A stretch of DNA of 64,000 nt. Source: a virus. Made by a program: the position numbers and the translations under genes. The stretch spans positions 6,565 through 70,564 of the IMG/VR virus record IMGVR_UViG_3300045988_105924; one strand, 5' to 3'. Positions 11,585-62,760 of the stretch are shown one piece after another (position 1 is the stretch's first letter; each line of letters begins with the position of its first letter). The notes below the pieces were generated by a model, which worked only from the letters and a program-made list of their open reading frames with translations, ran no database searches and was not told where the DNA came from.

Positions 11585-11809
11585 ATGATGGTATATGGAA
11601 ACATAACGTGTAATCGCTGTGGCATTACATGGTATGGTCCTAAATGTGGAAAGCTCTATTGTGATGAATGTCGTAAGATAATAAGAAATGAGGCATCCAT
11701 TCGATGCAAGAATAAAAAGAAACATAAACCAACATTTGTTGAGATTGTAAGAATGGCAGATGCTGAAGGATTATCTTACGGTAAGTATTGTTTGAAGTAT
11801 GGAGTTTGA
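11585..11809 (+). CDS. zinc-ribbon protein (CNRC...CDEC)
   Basis: SD gaggtgtaaatt then ATG; two CxxC pairs. Confidence 0.55.
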   Translation: MMVYGNITCNRCGITWYGPKCGKLYCDECRKIIRNEASIRCKNKKKHKPTFVEIVRMADAEGLSYGKYCLKYGV

Positions 11810-12638
11810 GGTGAATATAATAAGCGCAGTTGTTGAAAGAAAAGAAGAACAGATACCTAAATTGATTTATTTTAATCCGAAACCTTCTGTTCCGGCTAAA
11901 AAACGTGGTGTTACAAAAAGTAAGCAGAAGCGTAAGCGTAATATTTCTCCAATTAGAAGCTTGGATGATGTTCAAATGATTTCGGAATATTTTTGGGACA
12001 AGAAGCAGTATCGTAACTGGTGCTTATTTAATGTAGGTATTGCAACTGGTTTACGTGCTAGCGATTTGCTCAAGTTGAAGGTTTCCGATATGTCTTATTG
12101 CCTTTACAATGGAAAGATTGAAGTGGTTGAAGACGCGGGAGTTTGCATTATTGAAGAAAAAACATCTAAATATCGTGAAATTATTCTTACTCCAGAAGCG
12201 AGGGATATTGTTGAAACATACATCAAGATTGCGAAACTTGGATATGATGATTGGATGTTTCCATCTCGACAGGGGAGCTGGAAAAAGTCTTTGAGAACAA
12301 ATGGTGGACATGGGAAAACCGGTATTCTTCATATCGCAGAACCCAAAAAGGCCGGTGATCCTATTGATGTTGATCATTTTGCTCGTATTCTTCGTAACGT
12401 TGGTAAAGATTTAGGTCTTAATTATAAAATTGCATCTCATTCTTGCCGCAAAACGTTTGGTTATCGTGAAATGTGTCTTAATAAGGATGATAATCAGGCA
12501 TTGTCTTGGATTCAGGGTCAGTTGAATCATAGTAGTCAGGACATTACATTACGGTACGTTGGTTTTGATGAGGATAAGGCAAAAGAATATTATAAGAAGA
12601 CTTTTTATGGTGTGAATACACACAGCTTGGAAGACTGA
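11799..12638 (+). CDS. tyrosine site-specific recombinase (XerC/integrase family), internal copy
   Basis: GLRASDLLKL, HSCRKTFG and LRYVG motifs consistent with the R..H..R..Y catalytic core. Confidence 0.7.
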   Translation: MEFEVNIISAVVERKEEQIPKLIYFNPKPSVPAKKRGVTKSKQKRKRNISPIRSLDDVQMISEYFWDKKQYRNWCLFNVGIATGLRASDLLKLKVSDMSYCLYNGKIEVVEDAGVCIIEEKTSKYREIILTPEARDIVETYIKIAKLGYDDWMFPSRQGSWKKSLRTNGGHGKTGILHIAEPKKAGDPIDVDHFARILRNVGKDLGLNYKIASHSCRKTFGYREMCLNKDDNQALSWIQGQLNHSSQDITLRYVGFDEDKAKEYYKKTFYGVNTHSLED

Positions 12639-12646
12639 GGTGTGTG

Positions 12647-13321
12647 ATGGCTGATACTTATATTAAAGTCTGGGATACTTACGAGAGCTACTTTGAACCC
12701 CTTAGTGCTGCTGAGGTGGGGCGTCTGGTACTGGCGATGATGAAATATAAATCGTCTGGAACGGAGCCTGAACTCAACGGAAATGAGCGGTATGTGTGGC
12801 CTGCTGTGAAGAGAGATTTGGACAAAGATGCCGAATACATCGAAGGTAAGAGGATTTCTGGTAAAGCTGGTGGCTCATCAAGCAAGCGTAAGCAAAACGA
12901 AGCAAACGCAAGCAAAACAAAGCTAGAAAAAGATAAAGATAAAGATAAAGATAAGATATCGTCTTCGTCTTGTGATGAGACAACAACGACGAAACCTATC
13001 GAGGATGTTTTCCGAGAGAATATCGGGAAGCTTGGTGCTACAGGGCAAAAAGCTTTGGCAGAATATGTTGAGCGCATGGGCGATGAACTTGTGCTTGCTG
13101 TGATTGGTAAGTGTTCGGATCTCGGCGGTAGCACATGGGCTTATGTGCGAAAAGCACTGGACGAAGCTGAATCACTTGGTTGTAAGACTGCTGATGATTA
13201 TCGCCGGGTATGTCCGATAGGGAGTTGTCGTAACACAAGAGTGACTAGGGAGATGCCTAGCGGTGGTGATTGGCTGAAGAACGCAACGCATAGACGTCCG
13301 CTGATAAAGAAAGACGCTTAA
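12647..13321 (+). CDS. DnaD-domain replication protein; contains a KDKDKDKDK repeat
   Basis: C-terminal LVLAVIGKCSDLGGSTWAYVRKALDEAESLG resembles the DnaD C-terminal domain; in-frame (GATAAA)4. Confidence 0.5.
   Translation: MADTYIKVWDTYESYFEPLSAAEVGRLVLAMMKYKSSGTEPELNGNERYVWPAVKRDLDKDAEYIEGKRISGKAGGSSSKRKQNEANASKTKLEKDKDKDKDKISSSSCDETTTTKPIEDVFRENIGKLGATGQKALAEYVERMGDELVLAVIGKCSDLGGSTWAYVRKALDEAESLGCKTADDYRRVCPIGSCRNTRVTREMPSGGDWLKNATHRRPLIKKDA
12932..12955 (+). repeat. (GATAAA)3-GATAAG hexanucleotide microsatellite inside a CDS
   Basis: direct tandem repeat seen in the sequence. Confidence 0.8.
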
Positions 13322-15408: not shown

Positions 15409-15708
15409 ATGAATTTACAAGGACTTGAAAATAAAAAATGGGACTTTAATAAACAAGAGGAACTAGCTATCTCTTGGCTATTAAAACATGGCTTTGAGGT
15501 GAAATTGAAAAAACAGTATACATCAAAGGATATTTATACGGTAACAAAAGATGGTATTTTAGATGAATTTATCTTTCCGAATAACCAGAAGAACATGAAC
15601 GTTCGGGCTTTTATGGAAAGATATGAGAAAAATTTTGAAACAAAGAAAGAACTCATAAAATTAAGAGCAGAGGCATCGGCTAATGGTTTGATTAAAGAAC
15701 GTAGTTGA
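15409..15708 (+). CDS. hypothetical protein (99 aa)
   Basis: SD gaggtggactt then ATG; preceded by a 105-nt promoter-like gap. Confidence 0.55.
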   Translation: MNLQGLENKKWDFNKQEELAISWLLKHGFEVKLKKQYTSKDIYTVTKDGILDEFIFPNNQKNMNVRAFMERYEKNFETKKELIKLRAEASANGLIKERS

Positions 15709-15739
15709 TGTGATAAAAGTTAAGTTCTAGGAGGATTCT

Positions 15740-15955
15740 ATGAAATTCTATGTAATTAAAACCACAAAAAATGGTATTGAGTACAAAAAATATAAATGTA
15801 TAGATGGATGGACAAAAGAGAAAACGGCAAGTTGGCAATTTTCAAAACAAGGAGCGGAAAGAATCGCTAAAAGATTAAATGATTCTGTAAAAGGACACGA
15901 GCATGAAATTCATTACAATGTGTTAGCTGCTAAAAATGATTTGGATAACTTTTGA
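15740..15955 (+). CDS. hypothetical basic protein (71 aa)
   Basis: SD taggaggattct then ATG. Confidence 0.55.
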   Translation: MKFYVIKTTKNGIEYKKYKCIDGWTKEKTASWQFSKQGAERIAKRLNDSVKGHEHEIHYNVLAAKNDLDNF

Positions 15956-16002
15956 GTGAAAAGGTATGTCTAATAAAAGCTGAGATTTAGGGAGACATAG
16001 TT

Positions 16003-16233
16003 ATGAGTGAATATAAATTAAAGCCGTGTCCTTTTTGTGGTGGAGAAGTTACCGTTGCAGAGGGCAGTTATCGCCAAACACGATGGATGTATGTTACGAG
16101 AGGAAACAAAGAAAATAGGTGCAACTGCCATGTTTTCATGGAAAGCAAAACTTACTACTTTGATTCCTCTGAAAAAGACAAGGAAAGAATCAAAGCCGAC
16201 CTTATCGAAGCGTGGAATAAGCGAGTCGAATAA
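16003..16233 (+). CDS. zinc-ribbon protein (CPFCGG...CNCH)
   Basis: SD agggagacatagtt then ATG. Confidence 0.55.
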   Translation: MSEYKLKPCPFCGGEVTVAEGSYRQTRWMYVTRGNKENRCNCHVFMESKTYYFDSSEKDKERIKADLIEAWNKRVE

Positions 16234-16261
16234 AAACTAAGATTTAATGGAGGAAAATATT

Positions 16262-16465
16262 ATGAGCGAAACAAATCATGAAAAGAACAAACATGAAGTG
16301 ACTCGACTTGACGCAATTAGAAAGATAGACATTATGGGGCTTGAAAAGTTTCTTGAGAACATTCAGAAGTATCCAGACCGTTATCCCAAGAATAAATTTG
16401 AATGGATTGTATGGTTACAGGAACCAGTTGAAGATAGAGTACATTTTGATAATAAGGTGTTTTAA
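16262..16465 (+). CDS. hypothetical protein (67 aa)
   Basis: SD aatggaggaaaatatt then ATG 16262. Confidence 0.5.
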   Translation: MSETNHEKNKHEVTRLDAIRKIDIMGLEKFLENIQKYPDRYPKNKFEWIVWLQEPVEDRVHFDNKVF

Positions 16466-16466
16466 A

Positions 16467-16802
16467 ATGATTTATACCGTAACAATGATTGACTCGTTTA
16501 AGAACGAGCAGAATGCGAAATTTAGTTCGCCAGTGTCAAATACCAAAGGCATCTACTGGATGCCGGACGACAGTTGGATTGCTGGATTCTTTACAGATTT
16601 AGCAGAGGCTATTCGAGTTGTTAAGGAAAACGTGACTGACATCTTTGAACATTGTTACAACTACGCAGTCGTTGAAGGATACGAGGAAGGTCTGTATCCA
16701 AGACCAGAATTGACGAGGTGGTTTAAATATGATGCTGAGAGTGACACAGCATTCGAGATTGAACCGCCGCTGCATAATAATGTGTGTGGATATGCGTTTT
16801 GA
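16467..16802 (+). CDS. hypothetical protein (111 aa)
   Basis: ATG 16467 after aaggtg. Confidence 0.5.
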   Translation: MIYTVTMIDSFKNEQNAKFSSPVSNTKGIYWMPDDSWIAGFFTDLAEAIRVVKENVTDIFEHCYNYAVVEGYEEGLYPRPELTRWFKYDAESDTAFEIEPPLHNNVCGYAF

Positions 16803-16819
16803 AGAAGGAGAATAAGACT

Positions 16820-16975
16820 ATGAGTAGTGTACTTATTGATCGGAACGCAGCTAAGAAGGTAGAATCTATCTTCGAGCATCCTGATAAGATCTATTCGGTG
16901 TATTTGAAGGCTGGCGGAGATGTCGTTTGGCTGCAAGGTGAAATTGAGCTGTATGAATTTTTGCGCAGCTTATAA
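16820..16975 (+). CDS. hypothetical protein (51 aa)
   Basis: SD gaaggagaataagact then ATG. Confidence 0.45.
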   Translation: MSSVLIDRNAAKKVESIFEHPDKIYSVYLKAGGDVVWLQGEIELYEFLRSL

Positions 16976-16996
16976 AACCAATATTTTTGAAGGGAA

Positions 16997-17623
16997 GTGA
17001 TTTTTATTAACTCTAATTTGTTAATAAATCGTGAGCAAAGTGTTGCCATCGTGTGTATAATGTGCTTGCTGGCAGGGAATCTGGTATCGAAGATCAGCCC
17101 GGTAATTCAAAATCAGAGCAATTCGTACCTTTATAATAGTAGTCCTCCGGCAGTAAGTGTTGTGCAGCAAGAGGAAAAGGAACCAGAAGTCATCGTAAAA
17201 ACTGTTATCGAGACGCGTGTGGTAAACTTCAGTCAGGGAAAGCGCGAACTCACTAATGATGAGCGTGCTCTTGCGGAGCAGATCGTTGCTTGTGAAGCAG
17301 GTGCTGATAGCCTAGAAGGTCAGATGGCTGTGGCTCAATGTCTTTATGATTCTGCTGTACTTGATGGTCTAACCATCCAGCAGGTCTTTAAGAAGTATGG
17401 TTATAGTTCCTTATATAATAGGAAGGTGACGGCAGAGAACGAATTGGCTGTGTCTATGGTGTTTGATTACGGCGCTAAAATTTCAAACAAACCAATTCAA
17501 TGGTTTGTGACCCCGGCGGCAGCTTCCGGCAGTTGGCACGAGCACGGAGCAACGTTCGCTGGACAATTTGGCGCACATAGGTTCTATTACAACGCGGAAC
17601 TGGTTGTGGATGATGCCGAGTGA
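16997..17623 (+). CDS. membrane-anchored cell wall hydrolase (SleB/CwlJ Hydrolase_2-like)
   Basis: N-terminal TM segment; ERALAEQIVACEAGADSLEGQMAVAQCLYDSAVLDGLTIQQVF matches the SleB-type hydrolase core; GTG start. Confidence 0.6.
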   Translation: MIFINSNLLINREQSVAIVCIMCLLAGNLVSKISPVIQNQSNSYLYNSSPPAVSVVQQEEKEPEVIVKTVIETRVVNFSQGKRELTNDERALAEQIVACEAGADSLEGQMAVAQCLYDSAVLDGLTIQQVFKKYGYSSLYNRKVTAENELAVSMVFDYGAKISNKPIQWFVTPAAASGSWHEHGATFAGQFGAHRFYYNAELVVDDAE

Positions 17624-17657
17624 ATGGCATCATCTAAAATTTTAAACTTTTACAACA

Positions 17658-17709
17658 ACAAAAAGATGTATAATATATTGACCAAAACAAAAAGATGTGT
17701 ATAATATAT
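17658..17709 (+). repeat. tandem direct repeat CAAAAAGATGT(G)TATAATATAT x2, each with a -10 box
   Basis: two near-identical 20-22 nt copies 30 nt apart. Confidence 0.7.
17678..17705 (+). promoter_or_regulatory. sigma70-like promoter TTGACC-16-TATAAT (with TGTG extension)
   Basis: consensus hexamers read in the sequence, upstream of the gene at 17748. Confidence 0.55.
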
Positions 17710-17747
17710 CTTGAAAGTTGTCTAAATGAGTGGAGGGCGGTGTTTTA

Positions 17748-18074
17748 ATGCGTGAGAGAAATGTTCTGAAGGTCATACGAGTTGATGACTTTTTAAAGTA
17801 CATAAGAAAAAAGAGAGTGTGGGTTTGTTTTATTTGCAATGGTGTAGATGTTCACATGGTCTGTAACAAAATGAACGATGTTGGAGCAGAGACACATGGG
17901 ATCGTTAAAGGCATTGGCTTCTTCGGAAACGAAAGTCATATTGAGCTGCGGCAAGAATGCCACGAAGTAAGGAGGATTGAGCTTAGACCGGGCGATAAAG
18001 AGAAAGCGTATGAGATGATCTTCGATAACACAAGCGTGTTCGTATCAGAGAACCCCGAGTTGTACGGGCACTAA
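17748..18074 (+). CDS. hypothetical protein (108 aa)
   Basis: SD ggagggcggtgtttta then ATG. Confidence 0.5.
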   Translation: MRERNVLKVIRVDDFLKYIRKKRVWVCFICNGVDVHMVCNKMNDVGAETHGIVKGIGFFGNESHIELRQECHEVRRIELRPGDKEKAYEMIFDNTSVFVSENPELYGH

Positions 18075-18093
18075 AAATATTTAAAAAACCTCT

Positions 18094-18121
18094 TGACTTC
18101 TGCAAGGGTATCCTGTATAAT
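18094..18121 (+). promoter_or_regulatory. consensus sigma70 promoter TTGACT-17-TATAAT, with GTATCCTG directly upstream of the -10 box
   Basis: perfect -35 and -10 hexamers with 17-nt spacer, 44 nt upstream of the MazF-like gene. Confidence 0.7.
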
Positions 18122-18164
18122 ATAGCTATGGAACGGAGCTACACTATTATAGAGGAGAAAGACT

Positions 18165-18584
18165 ATGGATAGTAATATTGACCCAAAGGTCGGAGAGGTT
18201 TGGTTGGTTGATCTATCCAATGCGACAGGTCACCAGCAGCGCGGTATTCGACCGTTTGTTGTGACGAGCAACAACAAGCGCAACTTCTTCAGTCCCACAA
18301 TCAAAGGGAATCCGTTGTCTTCCAGAATATACAAGCGTTCTCCGGTTCATGTCCTGCTCTCAAAGGAAGATTGCGATTTTCTGGATGTTGACAGTATCGT
18401 TCTTTGTGAAGAGACCGATACACTTAACAAAGGACAGTTCATCAAGAAACTTGGTGTCTTATCGGAGCGTCAGATGAATATGATCGCAATGGCAAGATGC
18501 AAGGATGAACCGTTCTTACTCGCAGCATTCCTGAGCGGCGTACAACATACTATGGAATTTCAGAATTTTGCCGCATTTGCTTGA
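18165..18584 (+). CDS. MazF/PemK/Kid-family endoribonuclease toxin-like protein (orphan)
   Basis: GEVWLVDLSNATGHQQRGIRPFVVTS and DSIVLCEETDTLNKGQFIKKLGVLSERQMNMI align to the PemK/MazF signature blocks; SD gaggagaaagact then ATG. Confidence 0.7.
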   Translation: MDSNIDPKVGEVWLVDLSNATGHQQRGIRPFVVTSNNKRNFFSPTIKGNPLSSRIYKRSPVHVLLSKEDCDFLDVDSIVLCEETDTLNKGQFIKKLGVLSERQMNMIAMARCKDEPFLLAAFLSGVQHTMEFQNFAAFA

Positions 18585-18637
18585 TTTTTTATAAGGGTTA
18601 ATGGTACACTACATATAATAAGAAGGAGTGTGCCACT

Positions 18638-19564
18638 ATGCTTACTGAAGAGAAAATCAACGCTTTTGCCGAAAAGTATTCTGATAGAAGCGGTGAGTTT
18701 GTTATATCGACACTTAACCATGTTATGGATTACGAGGCCGAGCGTGGGTATGAGTTGTTTGACTTCACAAAAGATGATTTTGTAAAGATGTTTGCCAAAT
18801 ACAATTGGGTGAATTCAAGTCGGTCGTTCAGAAATGTAAAGTCAATAATTACAGGTTACATCAAAAGTGAGTATCGAGCGAGCATGTATGACTTAGCTGA
18901 ATTCTCGGAGAGCGACGTGAGTTCAGACAATATGTACGAGGACAAGTATTTTGCGTCAGCTGATGAGTTTGTTGATTTCTTGGACAAGTATGAAGAACCA
19001 TATCAGATTCGTATGAACGTGATTGCCGTGCTGTACTGGATTGGTCTTACTTCCGAAGAGGTTTCTAATCTGACAATTAACGATGTTGATTTTGAATCAT
19101 GTACTGTTCTGAATAAGACCGGTGTTGACGCGAGATTGATGAATATCATTAAGCAGTGTTATGAAATGAAACAATACGATGCTCCAAATATGGGAGGATA
19201 CAGAACGTTTTATGTCATAAATGGTGATTACATTCTTCGCAAAACAGAGGATAGAACTGGTGCAGACAGTGATTCAAGAATGTCTACAAATACGATTCAT
19301 AGTTATTTCACGCGCTTGAATGATATTCTCGAAAGAAGATATCATTCAAAGGCTTTAGACCGAAGACATCTGACCAGAAACGGCGAGTATGTCAAGGTTT
19401 ATAACTACTGTAAAACTCATCCAGAATTTAATCTTGCAGAACTTAGTTTCGGAAATGGTAAAGATCCTCTTGCGGACATTATCGGAAGAAAGTGCAGCAA
19501 GGTTGCCTACATTAGTTTCCGGCAAGGATACAAGGGCTGGATCGAATACTTCCACAAAAATTAA
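18638..19564 (+). CDS. hypothetical protein (308 aa)
   Basis: SD aagaaggagtgtgccact then ATG. Confidence 0.55.
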   Translation: MLTEEKINAFAEKYSDRSGEFVISTLNHVMDYEAERGYELFDFTKDDFVKMFAKYNWVNSSRSFRNVKSIITGYIKSEYRASMYDLAEFSESDVSSDNMYEDKYFASADEFVDFLDKYEEPYQIRMNVIAVLYWIGLTSEEVSNLTINDVDFESCTVLNKTGVDARLMNIIKQCYEMKQYDAPNMGGYRTFYVINGDYILRKTEDRTGADSDSRMSTNTIHSYFTRLNDILERRYHSKALDRRHLTRNGEYVKVYNYCKTHPEFNLAELSFGNGKDPLADIIGRKCSKVAYISFRQGYKGWIEYFHKN

Positions 19565-19569
19565 AAACA

Positions 19570-19596
19570 GGGGGCTTCAGCCCCTTGATTTTAACA
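19570..19596 (+). terminator. rho-independent terminator (GGGGC-TTCA-GCCCC then T-tract)
   Basis: GC hairpin followed by ttgattttaa. Confidence 0.65.
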
Positions 19597-19602
19597 TTGT
19601 AA

Positions 19603-19620
19603 CTATATAACACAGGATAC
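19603..19620 (+). promoter_or_regulatory. conserved motif CTATATAACACAGGATAC (copy 1)
   Basis: one of five direct copies, always 13-25 nt upstream of an SD. Confidence 0.6.
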
Positions 19621-19652
19621 AGAAAATAGTATTTGAATGGAGAATGATAACA

Positions 19653-21719
19653 ATGTCTGATTTCAAGAAATTTCGTGCACTGCTGCAGGACCACTTCAAT
19701 GAGATGGTGAAGGGCGAAAGCCCTCTGTTTATCACCGATGCAGACGAGGATGAACTGTATAATCTGTATCTCGACAGCTTCCCAGCTGGCACGAATGAGT
19801 TGTTCCGTAAGCGGCGCGAGTATGACTGTTCCTGCTGCCGCCGTTTCGTAAAGAACATCGGTAAGCTGGTTTCCTTTATGGATGGTCAGATGGTTACCGT
19901 CTGGGATTTCGATACCAAGTCCGATGTTTATCAGCCGGTTGTGGATGCGCTGGCTGCCTATGTGAAAACCTGCGCTGTTGTGAACCCGTATTACGTCAGC
20001 CGCAATATGATCTCTGATAGCAAGTTTGGCACTGAGATGAACTATGAGTATGACGCTGATCATAAGGCGGTTCATACCTGGGATCATTTCGTTGTCGAGA
20101 TTCCTCAGCGGTTCATTGTGCGTCCCGATGACGTACCTACCAAGATGGCTCAGTGGCGTGATTCCGCCAATGTGTTCAAGCGCTCTCTGGAGGAGCTAAC
20201 CATGGATGCCGTGGACACCGTGCTTGAGCTGATTGCGCAGAACAGCCTGTATCGCGGTAAGGAGTTTGAATCTCTGGTTCGTGGCTTCAAAATCGATAAG
20301 CAAGTGTATGATCGTCTGCCTGATGAAAAGAAGTCCGCTTATGTTTGGATGGCTCCCGGCGGAGCTTCGATGAACCGGCTTCGCATCCGCAATACGGCAA
20401 TCGGTACTCTGCTGGTGAACCTGAGCGAGGGCATGGACGTGGATGCTGCTGTGTCTGCGTTTGAGGCCATTGTTGCTCCCGCCAACTATAAGCGTCCTAA
20501 GGCGATTTTTACCAAGAAGATGCTGGAAGACGCACAGAAAACCGTCACTGAGTTGGGCTATATGAACAGTCTGGGTCGCCGGTTTGCTACTCTGGACGAC
20601 ATCACCGTAAATAACGTTTTATTCTGTAACCGAGACGCAGCCCCTCGTATTACTGGCGCTGTGAATCCGTTTGAAGCAATGGCGAAGACTGTCGCAATCG
20701 ATCCTAAGAAGTTCGGCCGCGCAGAGGAAATCGGTATTGATAAGTTTATCAAGGACGTGCTGCCCACCGCGACTGGTCTGGAACTGTTTATGGAGAATCG
20801 GTTTGAGAAGAATATGACGTCTCTGATTGCTCCGCAGGATAAGAACGCGCCGTCTATGTTCAAGTGGGCGAATGGTTTCAGTTGGGCGTATACGGGTAAC
20901 GTGGCTGACAGCCAGATCCGTGAGAACGTCAAGAATGCAGGCGGTAAGGTTGATGGCGTGTTGCGTTTCTCTATTCAGTGGAACGATAAGCAGTGCGAGT
21001 GGGATGGAAATGACCTTGATGCCCACTGTGTTGAACCGAACGACTTTGAGATCTATTTTGGCAACAAACGAGATTGGAGTACTGGTGGCAATCTGGATGT
21101 AGATATTATTCATCCTGATCGCGATGAGGCCGCTGTTGAGAATATTACATGGCCTGACATCAAAAAGATGAAGGATGGTAAATACGAGTTCTTTGTTCAT
21201 TGCTTCTCTAACCGTGGCGGCAAAACCGGCTTCCGCGCAGAGATTGAATTTGATGGTCAAATCTACTCCTTCAATTACAATATTCCGCTGCGTCAGACTC
21301 AGAATGTTTCTGTTGCTACTGTTGTGTTGAATGATGGGCAGTTTACTATTAAGGAACATCTCAATAGTTCTACTTCTTCCCGTGAAATCTGGGGTGTGAA
21401 TTCCAATCAGTTTGTACCGGTGTCCGTAGCAATGTATTCTCCGAACTACTGGGACGAGCAGAGTGGTAACGGTAATCGTCATTACTTCTTCATGCTCAAG
21501 GATTGTGTAAACCCTGAAAAGCCCAATGGATTCTACAATGAATTCCTGAAGGCGGAACTGCTACAGCATAAGCGAGTATTCGAGGCTCTTGGTTCTCAGA
21601 TGGCAGTTCAGTCGGTAGATGACCAGCTGTCCGGCGTTGGGTTCTCTGAGACGAAACATGATTCCTTTGTTGTCAAGGTTCAGGGCGCTACTGAGCGGGT
21701 TCTGAAAGTTGTTATTTAA
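19653..21719 (+). CDS. large protein of unknown function (688 aa), GC-enriched
   Basis: long ORF with a strong C-ending codon bias distinct from flanking AT-rich genes; CSCC cluster near the N-terminus; no P-loop or other recognisable catalytic motif. Confidence 0.65.
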   Translation: MSDFKKFRALLQDHFNEMVKGESPLFITDADEDELYNLYLDSFPAGTNELFRKRREYDCSCCRRFVKNIGKLVSFMDGQMVTVWDFDTKSDVYQPVVDALAAYVKTCAVVNPYYVSRNMISDSKFGTEMNYEYDADHKAVHTWDHFVVEIPQRFIVRPDDVPTKMAQWRDSANVFKRSLEELTMDAVDTVLELIAQNSLYRGKEFESLVRGFKIDKQVYDRLPDEKKSAYVWMAPGGASMNRLRIRNTAIGTLLVNLSEGMDVDAAVSAFEAIVAPANYKRPKAIFTKKMLEDAQKTVTELGYMNSLGRRFATLDDITVNNVLFCNRDAAPRITGAVNPFEAMAKTVAIDPKKFGRAEEIGIDKFIKDVLPTATGLELFMENRFEKNMTSLIAPQDKNAPSMFKWANGFSWAYTGNVADSQIRENVKNAGGKVDGVLRFSIQWNDKQCEWDGNDLDAHCVEPNDFEIYFGNKRDWSTGGNLDVDIIHPDRDEAAVENITWPDIKKMKDGKYEFFVHCFSNRGGKTGFRAEIEFDGQIYSFNYNIPLRQTQNVSVATVVLNDGQFTIKEHLNSSTSSREIWGVNSNQFVPVSVAMYSPNYWDEQSGNGNRHYFFMLKDCVNPEKPNGFYNEFLKAELLQHKRVFEALGSQMAVQSVDDQLSGVGFSETKHDSFVVKVQGATERVLKVVI

Positions 21720-21733
21720 GAGGAGAAATTATT

Positions 21734-22117
21734 ATGGAAAAGAATCTGTTTGAAATTGCAACCCGTAATCGCTATCGCTTCAACTATAAGGGTATTATGA
21801 CTGTTGAAGATCTGTGGGATCTGAGTGTCGAGGCACTAGATGCGATTTTTAAGACCCTGAATCGTCAGAAGAAGACCGCAGACGAAGACTCCTTGCTGGC
21901 TGTTAAGAGTGCCGAAAATACCGAACTGGCAAACAAGATTGAGCTGGTCAAGTATATCGTGTCTGTCAAGCTGGCTGAATCTGAGGCTCGTGTGGATGCA
22001 GCCGAGAAGAAGGCGCAGCGCGATAAGATTATGAAGATTGTGGCAAAGAAGAAGGACAAGGAGCTGGAAGATATGGACGTAGACCAGCTGATGAAGAAGC
22101 TGGAAGAGTTGAACTAA
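21734..22117 (+). CDS. hypothetical coiled-coil protein (127 aa)
   Basis: SD agaggagaaattatt then ATG. Confidence 0.55.
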   Translation: MEKNLFEIATRNRYRFNYKGIMTVEDLWDLSVEALDAIFKTLNRQKKTADEDSLLAVKSAENTELANKIELVKYIVSVKLAESEARVDAAEKKAQRDKIMKIVAKKKDKELEDMDVDQLMKKLEELN

Positions 22118-22136
22118 AATAGACATTTTATCGTGA

Positions 22137-22163
22137 TTTTCGTTAAAATAATTAACGAAAATA
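22137..22163 (+). repeat. perfect 11-bp inverted repeat ATTTTCGTTAA-AATAA-TTAACGAAAAT
   Basis: palindrome read directly; AT-rich, so more operator-like than terminator-like. Confidence 0.6.
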
Positions 22164-22188
22164 CGTTAGAATTTTGAGGTGATTTTTG

Positions 22189-22854
22189 ATGAAAACCTAC
22201 GAAAAAATCGAAACGGTGTTTAATCGTGATATCGAAGGCACTAAAAAGCTGATTATCGGTGATTTTCGTAATGAAACCATTGAGTTCCTACAAAATAATG
22301 AGTGGGAATTTACTGAGAAAGTGGATGGCACGAATGTGCGTGTTTGCTGGGACGGTCATAAAGTCAGCTTTGCCGGACGAACTGAACGTGCCGAACTTCC
22401 TAAGAATTTGGTGGATGCACTAAATGAAATTTTCGGTACTTCTGAAGCAGAGGAATTGTTTGAACAGACTTACGGTGATAAAGAAGTAATCCTCTTTGGA
22501 GAGGGTTATGGTGGCAAAATTCAAGGATGTGGTCATGGATACCGACCTGATGAGTGGTTCATCTTGTTCGATGTCCTGGTTGGTGATAACTACCAGAGTA
22601 GAGAGTGGGTTGAAAAGACTGCTCAGATGTTTGGTATCCAAGTAGTTCCTATTTTGTTTACAGGGACGATTCGAGACGGTATCAAGTTTGTGTGTCAACA
22701 TCCGAAGTCTACGGTTTCGATTGATGACATTTATATGGAAGGTCTGGTTGGTCGTCCAAAGGTTGAGTTGAAAGACCGCAGAGGTAATCGAGTAATTGTC
22801 AAAATCAAGTGGAATGACTTCAAGGATATCGCTGATACGCTTGGTAATGAGTAA
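22189..22854 (+). CDS. ATP-dependent RNA ligase-like nucleotidyltransferase (Rnl2/DRB0094 family, minimal NTase domain)
   Basis: motif I EKVDGTN (KxDGxN), motif III FGEGYGG, motif IV EGLVGRP, motif V KIKW. Confidence 0.65.
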   Translation: MKTYEKIETVFNRDIEGTKKLIIGDFRNETIEFLQNNEWEFTEKVDGTNVRVCWDGHKVSFAGRTERAELPKNLVDALNEIFGTSEAEELFEQTYGDKEVILFGEGYGGKIQGCGHGYRPDEWFILFDVLVGDNYQSREWVEKTAQMFGIQVVPILFTGTIRDGIKFVCQHPKSTVSIDDIYMEGLVGRPKVELKDRRGNRVIVKIKWNDFKDIADTLGNE

Positions 22855-24858: not shown

Positions 24859-24964
24859 GCCCGAAAGGGCGTACATAAAACCCGCTAGAACTTTTGTTTT
24901 ATAAGCGATGAAATAATATGACGTTAATACGTCTATTATTTTTCGCTAATTTTTAAAGTTCTAG

Positions 24965-24982
24965 CTATATAACACAGGATAC
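24965..24982 (+). promoter_or_regulatory. conserved motif CTATATAACACAGGATAC (copy 2)
   Basis: identical 18-mer to copy 1, followed by SD aaaaggaggag. Confidence 0.6.
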
Positions 24983-28438: not shown

Positions 28439-28455
28439 TTTTTAGTCTTAGCTAA

Positions 28456-28469
28456 GTAATACAGGATAC
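28456..28469 (+). promoter_or_regulatory. conserved motif variant GTAATACAGGATAC (copy 3)
   Basis: shares the ATACAGGATAC core with the other copies; SD ataaggag follows. Confidence 0.5.
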
Positions 28470-37439: not shown

Positions 37440-40400
37440 ATGTCAAGTAGTTTACACACGCACTCGAATTACAGTCTGCTAGATGGGTACTCTTCTCCTG
37501 AAGAAAATTTAAAAAGAGCATCTGAACTCGGTTTAAAGGCCGTTGCTATTACGGAGCATGGTGAGGTAACAAGCTGGCCGTACTACTCAGAACTGAAGGA
37601 CAAGTATCCGAATGTAAAACTTCTTTATGGTATTGAGGCATACGAGTGTGAAAACAGGGAAGTTAAGGATAAGAACAGTAAATACTGGCACCTGATTATT
37701 ATCGCAAAGAATGAGGCTGGCCGTCAGGCTGTTAATCGCTTGTCTACACTCGGTCATCTTCATGGTTTTTATAGCCGTCCTCGTATCACAAAAGAGGATA
37801 TCGCTAAGGAAGATACGAATAATTTGATTATCCTGTCTGCTTGTTTAGCAAGTAGGCTATCCAGAACAGATGATTATAACGCTTGTATTAAGCTGGTTCA
37901 AGAGTATAAGAGCTTATTTCCTCACTATTATCTTGAAGTTCAGGCTCATGCAAACAGTGAACAGGCAAAATACAATCAAAAAATCATGCGGCTGGCGAAT
38001 GATACTCATACAAAAGTAGTTGTCACAAACGATGTTCACGCTGCCACCAAAGAAGATCTTTATTATCAAGATTATTTCCTTCGTATCGCTCATGATACGG
38101 AAACCGCCGCAGAAATCTATGAAGGATGCTACTTCATGTCTCGTGAGGAACAGCATAGAGTTCTTGATAGCCAGATTGGATACGAAGCGGCAGAATGGTG
38201 TATCAATAATACTGACGAGGTTGCCGACCTGTGTGATGATGTAGATATGCCTTGGCATGAACCTGAACTTCCCAAAATTGAGATTCCGCCACAGTATTCT
38301 AATTCGGCAGCTTACCTGAAAGACCTTGTAAAAGAGGGATGGAAGAAACGTGGAATTGATAAGTTTGATGCAGAAAAGCAGAAAATCTATCGCAAACGTG
38401 TTGATGATGAGTTGTTTGTCATCGAGAAGAAAGACTTCTGTGACTACTTTTTGATTCTAGTCGATTACATCAACTGGTGTAAACAGAACGATGTTATTGT
38501 TGGCCCAGGGCGAGGTTCTGCTGCTGGTTCACTTGTATGTTACTTGATTGGTATTACGCAGCTTGACTCTATCAAATACGAGCTTGATTTCGGACGATTC
38601 CTTACTATTGAACGAAAGGACCTTCCTGACGTTGATGTGGACGTTAGCGACCGTGCGAAGGTTGTTGAGTATTTGACACAGAAGTATGGAGAAGATCGAG
38701 TGGTTCAGGTTATGAATATCGTGTACACTACTCCGGTCACTTCGATTCAAGACGTTGGTAAAGTTCTCGGCTTTCCGTATGCTGAAATAAGAAAAATCAG
38801 CGAGAAGTTTGTTCAAAAGACATGGAAGGATTGCCTTGATGCCAACCCGGAAGTGGCTGAAAATCCGAAGTATAAGGAACTACTTGACATCGCAAGTCAT
38901 ATCAATGGTCGCCCACGAGGATATGGTATTCATGCTGGCGGTGTTATTGTCTGCCGACATCCTTATTATGAGTATATCGGCATTCGGCACGGCACTGACG
39001 GAGAACATGTTATTTCTGTTGATAAAGTGATGGACGAGAAGATTGGACTCGTCAAGTTTGATATTCTTGGTGTTGCGTCGCTGGTTGCTATCGATGAGGC
39101 AAAACGTGAAGACAATATTCCAGACTGGGAGATTGATATTAACAATCCAGAGTTTGAAAACGATAAGGCAACTTACGATTTGATTTGCTCCGGGCGGACA
39201 GACAATCTATTCCAGATTGAGTCTTCGGGAATGAAGGATCTGGTTGCACAGCTTCAGCCGAGGTCGATTGAAGAGCTATCCGCTTTGATTGCACTTTATC
39301 GCCCTGATGCAATGCCGTCCATTCCTACATACGTTGATTGCAAATACCATCCTGAGCACATTCATTATTTTCATCCTGATATGGAACCGATTTTCCGCAG
39401 CACATACGGTGTGAATATTTATCAGGAACAGAGTATGAAGCTCACGAAGGTGTTCGGTGGTCGAAACGATGCCGGAGCTGACAGAATGCGTAAGTGCTTG
39501 GCAAAGAAAAAACCTGAGAAAGTCAAGGAAGAGGTCGAGCTTCTTTACGATGAGATTCTTGCAAACGGATACGATAAAGCAACCGCCGAATATATTTGCG
39601 ATGAACTGTCAACGAAGGGCGGCTACGGATTTAACAAGTCACATTCTCAGGCGTATGCCGTTATCTGCCTTCAAACAGCATACTTAAAAACACACCATCC
39701 GCTTGCATTCTTTAAGGCTATGCTAAACCTGAATAAAGCAAAGGTCGGTAAGGTAAACAAGATTATGGTGGATGCACGGAGTTTTGGTGTTCAGGTTCTT
39801 CCTCCGAGTATCAATCGTTCCGGCATGGATTTTACTGTATCGAATGGGAAAATTCTATTTGGCCTATCCGCAATCGGTGGTATTGGTGATACGCTTGCCG
39901 ATGCTATTATTGCCGAAAGAGATAAGAATGGAAAGTTCAAGGGTCTTGATGACTTCACGAGCCGTGTCCGTGCAACAAAGGCACAGATCATCGCACTGGT
40001 TAAGTCTGGTGCCATTCCTACAAAGAATAAACGAGCATTCTTGGAAAAGTACATTGCGAGTGGTTTGGAGCAATCTGAGTTCAAACCGGTAAGCACACTT
40101 CCTACAAAAGCTGTCCTGCTGAGTAAGTGGGATATTGATACGGAGCATTATAAGGTTGGTAAGAAGGTTGATAAAGAAACTGTCCTACGAATCTATAACG
40201 AAAAACGCCGTGTTGTATATGAAACTGAAAAGCTCAAGAAAAAAGAAGCATACATGACTGAGCAGTCAGAGAAGTATTTGAAGGACGAGCAATTCTGGGA
40301 GTTCCAGACATTACAGACGTTCATCATCGATAAGAATCCGTTTGAAAAGGCATACGAGTACATTCAGGATTTCTCAGAGATTGAGAGTGGCGACTCTTGT

Positions 40401-40655
40401 GTGCTGGTTGGTATTATCGCAAAGATTCAGAAGAAGAAAACAAAGACTGGTATGCAGTTTGCATTTGTAAATCTGTACTCTGGTGATGGTATCATTGAGC
40501 TAACTGTGTGGCCGAGAATCCTTTCTGATTATCAGGATTTGATTGTTAAGGGAAGTCAGGTAGCTGTGCTTGGTAAGAAGGAAGATGATTCGCACGTTAT
40601 TGCAAATGACTTCAAGCCTTACAAGCAATGGCTGCATGATAGAGAGATAAGGTAA
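37440..40655 (+). CDS. dnaE: DNA polymerase III alpha subunit (DnaE-type, PHP domain N-terminus)
   Basis: PHP motif HTHSNYSLLDG...ITEHG; 1071 aa; catalytic fingers and OB region length consistent with DnaE. Confidence 0.8.
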   Translation: MSSSLHTHSNYSLLDGYSSPEENLKRASELGLKAVAITEHGEVTSWPYYSELKDKYPNVKLLYGIEAYECENREVKDKNSKYWHLIIIAKNEAGRQAVNRLSTLGHLHGFYSRPRITKEDIAKEDTNNLIILSACLASRLSRTDDYNACIKLVQEYKSLFPHYYLEVQAHANSEQAKYNQKIMRLANDTHTKVVVTNDVHAATKEDLYYQDYFLRIAHDTETAAEIYEGCYFMSREEQHRVLDSQIGYEAAEWCINNTDEVADLCDDVDMPWHEPELPKIEIPPQYSNSAAYLKDLVKEGWKKRGIDKFDAEKQKIYRKRVDDELFVIEKKDFCDYFLILVDYINWCKQNDVIVGPGRGSAAGSLVCYLIGITQLDSIKYELDFGRFLTIERKDLPDVDVDVSDRAKVVEYLTQKYGEDRVVQVMNIVYTTPVTSIQDVGKVLGFPYAEIRKISEKFVQKTWKDCLDANPEVAENPKYKELLDIASHINGRPRGYGIHAGGVIVCRHPYYEYIGIRHGTDGEHVISVDKVMDEKIGLVKFDILGVASLVAIDEAKREDNIPDWEIDINNPEFENDKATYDLICSGRTDNLFQIESSGMKDLVAQLQPRSIEELSALIALYRPDAMPSIPTYVDCKYHPEHIHYFHPDMEPIFRSTYGVNIYQEQSMKLTKVFGGRNDAGADRMRKCLAKKKPEKVKEEVELLYDEILANGYDKATAEYICDELSTKGGYGFNKSHSQAYAVICLQTAYLKTHHPLAFFKAMLNLNKAKVGKVNKIMVDARSFGVQVLPPSINRSGMDFTVSNGKILFGLSAIGGIGDTLADAIIAERDKNGKFKGLDDFTSRVRATKAQIIALVKSGAIPTKNKRAFLEKYIASGLEQSEFKPVSTLPTKAVLLSKWDIDTEHYKVGKKVDKETVLRIYNEKRRVVYETEKLKKKEAYMTEQSEKYLKDEQFWEFQTLQTFIIDKNPFEKAYEYIQDFSEIESGDSCVLVGIIAKIQKKKTKTGMQFAFVNLYSGDGIIELTVWPRILSDYQDLIVKGSQVAVLGKKEDDSHVIANDFKPYKQWLHDREIR

Positions 40656-40667
40656 GAGGGTTGTAAG

Positions 40668-42998
40668 GTGGCAGATAAGAAATTTAATGAAAATATGATC
40701 CGTTGCTATATCAGGATAAAACGAGTCTTTTATCCGAAAGATGGGAAGGAGGTGGAGCCCGGCGGCTTCGCCACTTTCTCTGCCGAGGTGGTAAAAGTCA
40801 AGCAGGGAAATCCTGTTATGAGTCGATACAGTGACCTCCGGTTAAAGGGCAACGTTCCTAGCCTCGATATGAATAAAACTTATTCGTTCTGTGGTGAGTA
40901 TGTTCATCATGAAAAGTTTGGTGACCAGTATAAAATCATTTATATGAATGAGTTTCAAGAGATTACTGACCCGGAAGAACAGAAAAGCTTTCTCCATTAT
41001 ATCCTGACCGACCATCAGTTTGAGATACTTTATGAAGCATTCGAAAATCCGTATGAGATTATCAAGAATGGTGATATCAAGTCGCTTTGCACTGTTAGTG
41101 GTATTACGGAAGGCAGAGCTCAAAAGATCATTGATACTTATGAAAACAACATTGATAACAGTGAGGCGTACACAAAGCTAATTGAGTACGGTCTGACCCC
41201 TAGTGCTATTGAAAAGCTTGTCCGTCAATATCATGGTGCAGACACTCTGGTGAGAAAGATTGAAGAGAATCCTTACGTCCTGATTGACGATGTGTATGGC
41301 ATCGGCTGGAAGAAGGCTGACGCTCTTGCTTTGAATATGGGTTTAAAGCACAATTCGCAATTCAGAATCGAAGCTTACGTCATGCACTTTCTCGCCGCCC
41401 GCGCCGAGGAAGGCAACTCTATCATCCCGGCAAACCAGACAATCAATAGCTGCATCAAGGAACTTGAATTGGATGAGGGAGACCAAGAGGTCATCAAGAG
41501 GGCACTTTTTCATTTGCATGATGTCCGTGAAACACTTTGGTGGAGCGATGACCGTCAGGAATTTGCTTTAACTAGAGTGTGGAATCTGGAAGATAGTATT
41601 GCGAAGGAAATCAAGCGTCTGGCGGATGCTCCTGTTGAGCCGATTGGTCGAAATATGGATGCAGCAATCAATGAGGCCGAAGATGCGCTTGGCATCGAGT
41701 ATACCGAAGAGCAGAGAGATGCCATTAAAAAGGTATGCTCTAATAATATTGCTATCGTCACAGGTCTTGGTGGATGCGGTAAAAGTACCGTTGTCGCTGG
41801 TGTTCTAAAGGTTCTTCGTGGGAAGTCTTTCGCTCAGACTGCACTCTCTGGACGTGCCGCAGCTCGTATGCAGGAGATTACTGGTCAGGACGGTAAGACC
41901 ATTCATCGTCTTCTTGGTTATGATATTGAGAATGGTGGTTTCATTCATAACAAGGATAATCCTCTTGAAGAAGATATTATCATTTTGGATGAGACTTCTA
42001 TGGTTGGAGCTCAGTTGTTCTATGATTTGATTCAGGCAATTGAAACAGGCAAGCGATTCATCATGATTGGTGATGACGGCCAGCTTGAGAGTATCGGTAT
42101 GTGCAACATCTTCAAGGATATGCTTGCATCTAAGGTTGTTCCTGTGGCTCGTTTGACTAAGATCCATCGTCAGGCAGCTAAGTCTGCAATTATTACGGAG
42201 AGCATCAAGGTTCGTAACGCTACACAGTTGGTTTCTTATGGCTGGGCTGGCAATGAGGTTCGTGGTGAACTTCGTGATCTGGAACTTGATATCTATAAGG
42301 ACGCAAGTGAGTCGTTCAACCACATCATCAATCAATACCGTACCTTATATAATAAGGTAGGGAGTGATAGTGCGAAGATCCAGATTGTACTTCCACAGAA
42401 GCTGCGTGGCAGTATCTGTACCTATGAAGTCAATAATGCCATTCAGGAAATTGTGAATCCAAGTCGTGGTCAAGCAGAAGCAAAGGTCACAATCTATGGT
42501 GATGGCAAGGATAGGGTGTATACTCTGCGTGAGGGTGATCAGGTCATCATCAACAAGAACAACTATGAGCTTCACACATACAATCTCAAGACAAAGAAAA
42601 AAGAAGAGAAGTGTCCGGTGTTCAACGGAAACCGTGGCATTATTCGAAAGATTGAGAGTAGTTTTATCCTGGTTGATTTTGACCAGTGGGGAACGATTTT
42701 CATTCCTCATTACTTTGGTGGGAATAACATTTGGACAACGCTTGAACTTGCTTATGCTTTAAGTTGTCATAAGTTGCAGGGCAGTGAGGCTCCGTATGTG
42801 ATTGTTGGCATGGACAACTCTGCGTACCTGATGTTGACGAGAGAATGGCTCTATACGGCCATCACTCGTGCCAAGAAGTATTGTGTGATTTGTGCCGAAA
42901 CTCATGCTCTTGATCGGGCTGTAAAGACTTCGAGAGTTCCATATAAGCGGACGTTCTTGAAGGAATTTTTACGGAAAGAATTTGCAGAAAAGCATTGA
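40668..42998 (+). CDS. RecD/Dda-like superfamily 1 DNA helicase (AAA_30 plus UvrD_C_2)
   Basis: Walker A GLGGCGKST, Walker B ILDETSMV, C-terminal CHKLQGSEAPYVIV...TAITRAK. Confidence 0.7.
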   Translation: MADKKFNENMIRCYIRIKRVFYPKDGKEVEPGGFATFSAEVVKVKQGNPVMSRYSDLRLKGNVPSLDMNKTYSFCGEYVHHEKFGDQYKIIYMNEFQEITDPEEQKSFLHYILTDHQFEILYEAFENPYEIIKNGDIKSLCTVSGITEGRAQKIIDTYENNIDNSEAYTKLIEYGLTPSAIEKLVRQYHGADTLVRKIEENPYVLIDDVYGIGWKKADALALNMGLKHNSQFRIEAYVMHFLAARAEEGNSIIPANQTINSCIKELELDEGDQEVIKRALFHLHDVRETLWWSDDRQEFALTRVWNLEDSIAKEIKRLADAPVEPIGRNMDAAINEAEDALGIEYTEEQRDAIKKVCSNNIAIVTGLGGCGKSTVVAGVLKVLRGKSFAQTALSGRAAARMQEITGQDGKTIHRLLGYDIENGGFIHNKDNPLEEDIIILDETSMVGAQLFYDLIQAIETGKRFIMIGDDGQLESIGMCNIFKDMLASKVVPVARLTKIHRQAAKSAIITESIKVRNATQLVSYGWAGNEVRGELRDLELDIYKDASESFNHIINQYRTLYNKVGSDSAKIQIVLPQKLRGSICTYEVNNAIQEIVNPSRGQAEAKVTIYGDGKDRVYTLREGDQVIINKNNYELHTYNLKTKKKEEKCPVFNGNRGIIRKIESSFILVDFDQWGTIFIPHYFGGNNIWTTLELAYALSCHKLQGSEAPYVIVGMDNSAYLMLTREWLYTAITRAKKYCVICAETHALDRAVKTSRVPYKRTFLKEFLRKEFAEKH

Positions 42999-43023
42999 CA
43001 ATTATGTGCGTATCCTGTATAAT
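42995..43023 (+). promoter_or_regulatory. consensus sigma70 promoter TTGACA-17-TATAAT, with GTATCCTG directly upstream of the -10 box
   Basis: perfect hexamers; the -35 overlaps the helicase stop codon. Confidence 0.65.
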
Positions 43024-43036
43024 ATAGTTATAAAAA

Positions 43037-43060
43037 GTCTCCACCCGGAGGCTTAAAATT
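43037..43060 (+). terminator. hairpin GTCTCC-ACCC-GGAGGC followed by a T-rich tract
   Basis: 6-bp GC stem plus ttaaaattctctcttt. Confidence 0.5.
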
Positions 43061-43070
43061 CTCTCTTTAA

Positions 43071-43088
43071 CTGTATAATACAGGATAC
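43071..43088 (+). promoter_or_regulatory. conserved motif variant CTGTATAATACAGGATAC (copy 4)
   Basis: TATAAT followed by ACAGGATAC. Confidence 0.55.
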
Positions 43089-43090
43089 GG

Positions 43091-43128
43091 GAAAGAAATG
43101 GCTTGCTCGTAACGACAAGCCTTTCTTT
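43091..43128 (+). other. long hairpin AAAGAAATGGCTTG-loop-CAAGCCTTTCTTT
   Basis: 13/14-bp inverted repeat between two motif copies; may act as an attenuator or terminator. Confidence 0.5.
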
Positions 43129-43138
43129 ATTAGCTATA

Positions 43139-43157
43139 ACTATATAACACAGGATAC
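43139..43157 (+). promoter_or_regulatory. conserved motif CTATATAACACAGGATAC (copy 5)
   Basis: identical to copies 1 and 2; 13 nt upstream of the ligase ATG. Confidence 0.6.
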
Positions 43158-43170
43158 GCAAGGAGGCTTT

Positions 43171-49791: not shown

Positions 49792-49802
49792 GAGGTGATT
49801 AC

Positions 49803-62565: not shown

Positions 62566-62760
62566 ATGAAGGAAGTCCCAATTTGGGAAAAGACGACCCT
62601 GACGTTAGATGAAGCGGCTGCTTACACGGGGATTGGGGTCTGCCGACTAAGAGCGATTACTGATGATGAAAACTGTCCATTGGTACTTTGGGTGGGGAAT
62701 AAACGTCTTATCAAACGTAAAGCTCTCGAAAAATATATAGATCAAACGTATTCTGTTTGA
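62566..62760 (+). CDS. xis: excisionase/MerR-like HTH DNA-binding protein
   Basis: 64-aa protein with HTH LTLDEAAAYTGIGVCRLR, immediately upstream of the integrase. Confidence 0.5.
   Translation: MKEVPIWEKTTLTLDEAAAYTGIGVCRLRAITDDENCPLVLWVGNKRLIKRKALEKYIDQTYSV

Follow-up and report, generated by a model that had tools for sequence, protein, structure and literature searches.

In a 64,000-nucleotide stretch of phage DNA (positions 6,565 to 70,564 of the IMG/VR virus record IMGVR_UViG_3300045988_105924, one strand read 5′ to 3′; the whole stretch is called the window below), a gene for a protein of the MazF/PemK family is followed by a gene for an apparent homologue of MrpR (also named YopR and SroF), the integrase-fold master repressor of phage SPbeta (PMC10516654). 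The pair is served by one promoter, and the locus comprises the following features.

17748..18074, + strand: gene for a 108-aa protein, syntenic with mazF in most lineages seen and very poorly conserved
18093..18121, + strand: sigma-A-type promoter TTGACT-17-TATAAT of the mazF/repressor operon (promoter scan, comparison with relatives)
18152..18157, + strand: Shine-Dalgarno sequence GAGGAG of mazF, 7 nt 5′ of the open reading frame (ORF), read directly from the sequence
18165..18584, + strand: mazF-like gene, 139 aa, ATG start (PF02452, phrog_1936, AlphaFold2 with Foldseek)
18610..18615, + strand: TACATA (UACAUA in the mRNA), candidate MazF cleavage site and sole conserved block in the 53-nt mazF-repressor spacer
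18623..18628, + strand: AAGGAG, the Shine-Dalgarno site of the repressor-like gene, as read in the sequence itself
18638..19564, + strand: gene for the 308-aa putative MrpR/YopR/SroF homologue, an SPbeta-type integrase-fold repressor (MrpR_N_CB, MrpR_C_cat, hhalign)
19569..19585, + strand: intrinsic terminator closing the bicistronic unit (terminator scan; GC-rich hairpins at the same place in relatives)

An earlier reading of this DNA, made from the sequence alone, had assigned the 139-aa product to the MazF/PemK family and proposed a comparison with PF02452, which bears the assignment out: the PemK_toxin profile matches with E 2.8e-19 and 69.8 bits (cut-off 23.1) over residues 8-109, with profile positions 1-103 of 109 covered, and the PHROG profile phrog_1936, named "MazF-like growth inhibitor", matches with E 3e-21 and 77 bits. 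The nearest solved relatives by sequence are Staphylococcus aureus MazF (E 1.5e-14) and Bacillus subtilis EndoA/YdcE (E 1e-10). The MazF proteins of the same two species also came out on top when an AlphaFold2 (AF2) model built on 26 family members (pLDDT 88) was compared with the PDB by Foldseek (E 1e-11, target-normalised template-modelling (TM) score 0.83-0.86), and the model has the SH3-like beta-barrel characteristic of the MazF fold. The HMMER alignment places the catalytic Arg24 and Thr47 of the S. aureus enzyme (Arg29 and Thr52 in E. coli) on Arg29 and Ser52 of the phage protein; all 26 family members, at 59-98% identity, have Arg at position 29 and either Ser or Thr at position 52, so that the catalytic pair appears to be retained, with Ser for Thr as a conservative replacement. 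Ten side chains have been reported to read the UACAU core in S. aureus MazF and YdcE (PMC4041440), and seven of these (Q25, S/T52, K57, H62, L73, S77 and E82 in phage numbering) are kept and invariant here. Beyond the core, which is the only part (residues 8-108) that ordinary MazFs align to, the phage protein has a conserved C-terminal addition of about 25 aa (A110, R111, D114, E115, P116, L118, F122 and F132; ARCxDEPFL..AF..F, with the motif DEPFL). The C-terminal segment (residues 110-139) is modelled as two extra helices (pLDDT ~90), and the extension is common to a subfamily of ~140-aa MazF homologues down to ~30-40% identity. Within the window clade, the 51 DNA alleles of mazF give a ratio of nonsynonymous to synonymous substitution rates (dN/dS) of 0.029 across the whole core, and none of the ~157 copies has an internal stop. 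The 139-aa protein is thus identified, by sequence and predicted fold, as a MazF/PemK-family endoribonuclease with predicted RNase activity, and a non-catalytic role for it is unlikely.

The sequence-only reading had further taken mazF for a free-standing gene with a promoter of its own. The promoter TTGACT-17-TATAAT is real, but it begins at 18093 and not at 18094 as had been given; the two flanking ORFs, 17748..18074 (108 aa, before the promoter) and 18638..19564 (308 aa), were described correctly. The gene itself is the first cistron of a two-gene unit that begins with the promoter at 18093 and is closed by the terminator at 19569..19585. A promoter scan of 15500..22500 returned no promoter-like site on the + strand of the mazF-repressor spacer (18585..18637, 53 nt), and before 19569 the single terminator-like match, a weak stem of 5 bp, falls within the mazF ORF (18241..18255); with neither promoter nor terminator between mazF and the 308-aa gene, mazF is not free-standing. 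The promoter string is matched once in the 64 kb against 0.07 matches expected by chance, with at least one match in 7 of 100 shuffles, statistics that taken alone are suggestive. In the eight related lineages inspected, a -35 hexamer TTGAC(A/T) or TTGATT is found upstream of mazF, in most of them with TAnnAT 17 nt downstream. Transcripts of the 108-aa gene could continue into mazF, since no terminator intervenes, and the 108-aa gene is itself preceded by two tandem 29-nt promoter-like repeats (17649-17706; TTTACA/TTGACC .. AAAAAGATGT(G)TATAAT).

Assignment of the downstream partner depends on profile comparison. The MrpR_N_CB family (PF22822) matches the 308-aa protein of the window alone with E 4e-4 and 21.4 bits, below the Pfam threshold of 27, and matches five of seven orthologues, the best with E 4e-8; precomputed matches connect MrpR_C_cat (PF22823) with close relatives of the protein. 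Aligned by hhalign, a profile of the seven orthologues is collinear with SPbeta YopR over 251 columns (90.8% probability, E 1.2e-6). A tblastn search with the 308-aa protein gave no match among deposited phages, which shows that the homology to YopR is detectable through profiles only. In the only significant alignment with a recombinase (XerA, E 0.004), the first catalytic Arg (in TGVR) falls on the Thr of GLTSEE, the other catalytic positions being aligned unreliably. As far as these comparisons go, the product of the downstream gene and MrpR/YopR/SroF, the master repressor of SPbeta, are homologous.

The pairing of the two genes is conserved. The order small ORF, mazF, mrpR-like gene is found in seven lineages with 59-70% MazF identity (the window clade and the lineages labelled L001, L004, L007, L009, L010 and L094); the pair is present also in L180 (52% MazF identity; partner confirmed by hhalign at 98.6%) and in L182 (41%; partner matches MrpR_N_CB), and probably in L183 (44%), where the partner ORF ends at the contig end and is MrpR_N_CB-like by eye only. 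This amounts to 9-10 lineages with MazF identity down to 41%, and the genes beyond the terminator differ between relatives. In the seven lineages in which MazF holds 59-70% identity, both neighbours have fallen to 15-28%, and within the window clade the dN/dS of the repressor-like gene (0.07) and of the upstream 108-aa gene (0.10) exceeds that of mazF. As the slowest-diverging gene with the lowest dN/dS, mazF is the most constrained element of the module, a strong constraint of the kind that would suit an enzyme with conserved substrates. Among deposited phages, the nucleotide relatives are limited to one unannotated faecal contig.

A 21-bp element (TAGCTATATAACACAGGATAC; TAGCTATATTATACAGGATAC as the − strand reading at 18108..18128) occurs in seven copies in the window, where none is expected, and all of them are intergenic; its 9-mer core, ACAGGATAC, likewise occurs seven times against 0.3 expected. 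The copies are these.

18108..18128, − strand: inverted copy across the -10 box of the mazF promoter, candidate operator
19600..19620, + strand: copy between the operon terminator, which it follows closely, and the next transcription unit (repeat search)
43010-43030, − strand: inverted copy across the -10 box of a second perfect promoter at 42996
24962-24982, 28449-28469, 43068-43088 and 43137-43157, + strand: direct copies ahead of other transcription units

The direct copies are located 3-25 nt 5′ of ribosome-binding sites. In L001 and L004 the layout is the same and the repeats are different ones, specific to each lineage, as would be expected of operators that co-evolve with a fast-diverging repressor. 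In SPbeta, annotated palindromes lie past the yopR terminator and in the region of the yopM promoter, where MrpR binds its repeated element, SPBRE; the 21-bp element of the window shares this layout. By analogy, the element could be an SPBRE-like operator that is bound by the 308-aa protein.

The spacer between the two genes contributes a further candidate site. Spacers of the seven lineages (51-76 nt) are otherwise unalignable, and TACATA is nevertheless present in all seven and in all 18 spacer variants seen, 26-42 nt 5′ of the repressor start codon. It is the sole 6-mer common to the seven spacers, and any shared 6-mer at all was obtained in 0 of 20000 shuffles, a figure that overstates the independence of related lineages; TACATA recurs in the spacer of L183, which brings the count to eight of ten lineages. 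U^ACAUA is the strict MazF site in B. subtilis, Listeria and S. aureus (bioRxiv 10.64898/2026.08.06.743204), and the U^ACAUA-cutting enzymes of B. subtilis and S. aureus include the closest solved relatives of the phage MazF. The hexamer is absent from both ORFs in the seven lineages, compared with 2.5-6.5 copies expected. Depletion of the UACAU pentamer in the operon, as was reported for the sro operon of phage phi3T, was considered and rejected (7 observed, 11.7 expected); only the hexamer is absent. A promoter in the spacer was likewise rejected as the main explanation of the conserved TACATA, the scan for it being negative; an in-register -10 box (TAnnnT from the last TA of TACATA) is present in about half of the lineages, and a sigma-K-like CATAnnnTA in three of seven. 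On the sense strand of the entire window TACATA occurs 34 times as compared to 14-25 expected (~14 by a Markov model) and 16 times on the antisense strand, and seven of the 34 sense-strand copies lie within the ~6% of the window outside the chosen ORFs. The excess recalls the enrichment of MazF sites reported in SPbeta and phi3T transcripts.

No recognisable antitoxin accompanies the gene, as the sequence-only reading had maintained; searches by profile, fold and RNA family, made within the 64-kb window of a phage of ~130 kb, agree with it. An adjacent, co-transcribed MazE/PemI protein of AbrB-SpoVT or ribbon-helix-helix (RHH) fold, as is found in a type II MazEF module, is absent from the locus. 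The upstream 108-aa protein has no match in Pfam, PHROG or PADLOC, and its AF2 model (pLDDT 80) is similar to B. subtilis YojF and to PH-like beta folds, and unlike the AbrB and RHH folds known from antitoxins. The 78 small + strand ORFs of the window matched 49 Pfam families, and antitoxin families are absent from the best 25 of these (E up to 0.024). With a type III RNA antitoxin in mind, Tandem Repeats Finder (TRF) and Rfam were applied to 16500..20500 and returned no tandem repeat and no RNA family. A canonical or hidden antitoxin at the locus was rejected on these grounds, the neighbours being negative in Pfam, PHROG and PADLOC and the region negative by TRF and Rfam.

The phage is temperate. 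At 62566..62757 the window encodes a Tn916-type excisionase (Xis; E 2.3e-21) and at 62834-64000 a Tn916-type tyrosine integrase (Int; Integrase_DNA and Phage_integrase domains) that runs off the window, and the identical MazF protein is present on 525 contigs, the longest of them 489 kb. In the collection searched, 753 blocks contain one particular allele of the repressor gene, and the prophage is very common in the human gut. The phage carries an anaerobic ribonucleotide reductase, NrdD, indicating that its host is an anaerobe; a protein-pattern scan covering a single genome for each species gave no relative. The sequence-only reading had seen a toxin of a phage early region that could act on host or competitor RNAs or be neutralised by an unrelated phage protein, and both are conceivable; in a temperate prophage with Xis and Int, the locus is better read as part of a lysogeny-control module than as an instrument of generic early host takeover.

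Directly past the repressor terminator, most relatives encode a fusion of 736-754 aa that combines polynucleotide kinase (AAA_33), phosphatase (Metallophos) and T4-type RNA ligase 1 (Pnkp-Rnl1; L001 7583-9814, L004 7591-9855, L174 4062-6272), an enzyme of RNA healing and sealing that acts on ends of the types made by MazF. The window has instead a 691-aa protein (phrog_1735) at 19644-21719, then a 127-aa ORF and then a 222-aa RNA ligase (PF09414) at 22186..22854.

Based on the family, the fold and the catalytic residues of the protein, the operon anatomy, the conserved pairing, the purifying selection and the temperate lifestyle, we read the locus as an active, antitoxin-less MazF that is controlled transcriptionally within an SPbeta-like lysogeny operon and biases the phage towards lysogeny, an interpretation that we prefer while holding it to be plausible and somewhat short of probable. 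The output of MazF would be limited by repression of the operon promoter, mediated by the 21-bp element on the -10 box, and not by an antitoxin. An extra limit may arise if MazF cuts its own bicistronic mRNA at the intercistronic UACAUA; the cut would leave the mazF half without a terminator hairpin, and the repressor half would keep its ribosome-binding site and terminator. Through cleavage of UACAUA-type sites in phage and host transcripts, the RNase would bias the outcome to the establishment or keeping of lysogeny, or it might act in the lysogen. In phi3T infection, host MazF breaks down the majority of phage mRNAs but not that of the sroF operon, and thereby favours lysogeny (PMC10769878); by analogy, a phage-borne MazF would plausibly push in the same direction, as a phage-owned counterpart of the host-MazF step that phi3T and SPbeta exploit. 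A bolder form of the proposal, which we regard as doubtful, is a self-contained, antitoxin-free RNase switch with MazF as the lysis-lysogeny effector, cutting UACAUA-rich phage transcripts as well as its own mRNA and sparing the repressor cistron. Such a switch would shut off its own synthesis, and gut SPbeta-like phages would then have internalised the host MazF step of the Bacillus arbitrium phages. The neighbouring Pnkp and RNA-ligase genes might reseal the resulting 2′,3′-cyclic-phosphate and 5′-OH ends.

Several observations weigh against the preferred interpretation or against parts of it. Three of the ten recognition residues differ from those of S. aureus MazF (S18 to H23, L55 to S59 and Q78 to E83), so the specificity of the phage enzyme is possibly not UACAUA. 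The TACATA is missing in L180, where mazF and the repressor gene overlap by 17 nt, and in L182; the depletion of the hexamer in the operon is marginal (P ~0.08 by codon shuffling), and three TACAT pentamers lie inside the mrpR-like ORF of the window. The spacer site is predicted to be unpaired in four of the seven lineages and paired in three. The copies of the 21-bp element on the + strand, situated beside ribosome-binding sites, could belong to a phage-specific promoter, leader or RNA element instead of an operator. MazF-like genes of phages occur also in unrelated contexts, for example among the structural genes of Enterocloster phage PMBT24, from which it follows that a MazF in a phage need not be tied to lysogeny. 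Finally, arbitrium genes were not seen, and no AimR-like match was obtained among the window ORFs scanned with Pfam, which represent half of the phage.

Other explanations assign the same two genes to a different task. The locus might be an unconventional toxin-antitoxin (TA) or addiction module in which a neighbour, the MrpR-like or the 108-aa protein, serves as the antitoxin and which stabilises the prophage or aborts infection by a competing phage on loss of the repressor. We consider this unlikely. Three-gene synteny and co-transcription of mazF with the mrpR-like gene are strictly conserved, the 17-nt overlap in L180 suggests translational coupling, the partner is predicted to bind DNA and is probably autoregulatory, and transcription could pass from the 108-aa gene into mazF without an intervening terminator; all of this would suit such a module. 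However, neither neighbour has a known MazF-antitoxin fold, both have diverged far beyond MazF (to 15-28% identity, against the 59-70% it retains), and the MrpR of SPbeta represses without any linked toxin (PMC10516654). Equally improbable in our judgement is a lytic host shut-off nuclease, that is, an early MazF that breaks down host mRNA and is expressed from a strong promoter, with damage to the phage's own RNA tolerated or repaired and with the link to the repressor incidental. The consensus sigma-A-type promoter, the placement of the family under "host takeover" in PHROG, the varied contexts of the orphan MazF-like genes in 76 phage records, and the presence of RNA repair genes nearby (the Pnkp-Rnl1 fusion directly downstream in relatives, the RNA ligase at 22186..22854 in the window) are in line with this function. 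It is opposed by the greater frequency of TACATA on the phage's own sense strand (34 against 14-25 expected), whereby the phage would hit itself if that is the site, by the pairing with the repressor over 9-10 lineages while the surroundings vary, and by the operator-like element on the promoter.

A split TA system, in which host MazE or a small, unlinked phage inhibitor of AimX/YosL type neutralises the toxin in trans, is less probable still. It has a precedent in the unlinked MazE-like inhibitors AimX and YosL of phi3T, about half of the ~130-kb phage lies beyond the 64-kb window, and the conserved additional helices at the C-terminus, as modelled, could provide a partner-binding surface; the absence of antitoxin families among the best-matched 25 of 49 families from the small window ORFs speaks against it. 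Such neutralisation is compatible with the preferred reading of an RNase in a lysogeny operon and does not exclude it. The least credible proposal, to which we give very little weight, is a protein of MazF fold that is no longer a nuclease and works, for example, as a regulator or as a decoy for host MazE. The conserved extra C-terminal segment and the three changed RNA-recognition positions could be taken in its favour. It is at odds with the invariant catalytic Arg and the retained Ser/Thr, with the seven of ten recognition residues that are invariant, and with a dN/dS of 0.03 over the whole core.

Relative to MazF (EndoA/NdoA) of the B. subtilis and S. aureus MazEF modules, the phage protein has the same fold (TM-score 0.83-0.86), ~35-38% identity and the catalytic Arg and Thr/Ser; it differs in that no mazE lies upstream, the gene is co-transcribed with a repressor gene, about 25 aa are added at the C-terminus and residues H23, S59 and E83 are changed. 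The resemblance to the yopM-yopR (sroA-F) operon of SPbeta and phi3T consists in the MrpR/YopR/SroF gene being likewise last in the operon and followed by a terminator, and relatives of the window phage carry the SPbeta-type genes YorF and YorH nearby. In those phages it is the host MazF that is tied to the lysis-lysogeny decision, whereas here the MazF is phage-encoded and inside the repressor operon. There are further differences: aimR, aimP and aimX and equivalents of yopM-Q were not seen in the window, the candidate operator is unrelated in sequence to SPBRE, the host is an anaerobic gut bacterium and not Bacillus, and a Tn916-type tyrosine Int with Xis takes the place of the serine recombinase SprA of SPbeta (PMC10516654). 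The orphan phage MazF-like genes of PHROG 1936, to which the profile match is E 3e-21, resemble the present gene in that the members inspected also have no annotated antitoxin; in contrast to it, the other inspected members are ~105-120 aa long, reside in tail/lysis or replication neighbourhoods and have neither the C-terminal segment nor an MrpR-like partner. HigBA, MqsRA and HicAB are toxin-first type II modules in which the antitoxin is a DNA-binding repressor. The order of toxin and then DNA-binding protein in one autoregulated-looking operon is shared with them, but the partner here is a 308-aa integrase-fold phage repressor and not a small, labile antitoxin.

Orphan MazF genes of phages are already known as a class (PHROG 1936; 76 phage records by tblastn), and membership in the MazF family is in itself ordinary. 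We found no publication in which a MazF encoded by a phage is linked with a repressor of MrpR/SroF type or with a conserved UACAUA site. MazF toxins are usually viewed as one half of a TA pair, and their link to lysogeny is known only from Bacillus phages that manipulate the host MazEF. If the proposed reading is true, RNase-based control of lysogeny would be wider than the Bacillus case and could be phage-autonomous, and a "toxin" with a long recognition site could be kept safely by transcriptional control alone. With two genes, one promoter and one conserved site, the locus constitutes a compact system and possibly a source of a new sequence-specific RNase.

Elsewhere in the window, replication and metabolic cargo is encoded at 37440-44484, 48268-52004 and 61743-62561, including a PolIII-alpha-type DNA polymerase (1071 aa), a RecD2 helicase, an ATP-dependent DNA ligase, a Band7/flotillin protein, NrdD and a FolD-like enzyme. 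Relatives have genes of NAD salvage, namely NAMPT, a weak PRPP-synthetase-like match and NAD synthase (L004 2099-5361). Upstream of the locus, a 76-aa zinc-ribbon protein is encoded at 16003-16233, in the same position as a 76-aa gene of L174 that matches the Lar restriction-alleviation family (PF14354), and one small ORF of the window matches PF14354 with E 1e-9. In L094, a divergent 90-aa ORF with a Cro/CI-type helix-turn-helix recognised by eye (4068-4340, − strand) lies ~180 nt upstream of the small ORF in front of mazF; this gene is without a counterpart in the window. The early region of the window encodes a short protein of the tyrosine-recombinase family (279 aa; 11799-12638), followed by a DUF6291/DnaB_2-like protein (12644-13321). 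Homologous short recombinases are found at the same relative place in L002, L007, L009 and L010, and the 279-aa protein may be a second integrase-fold regulator.

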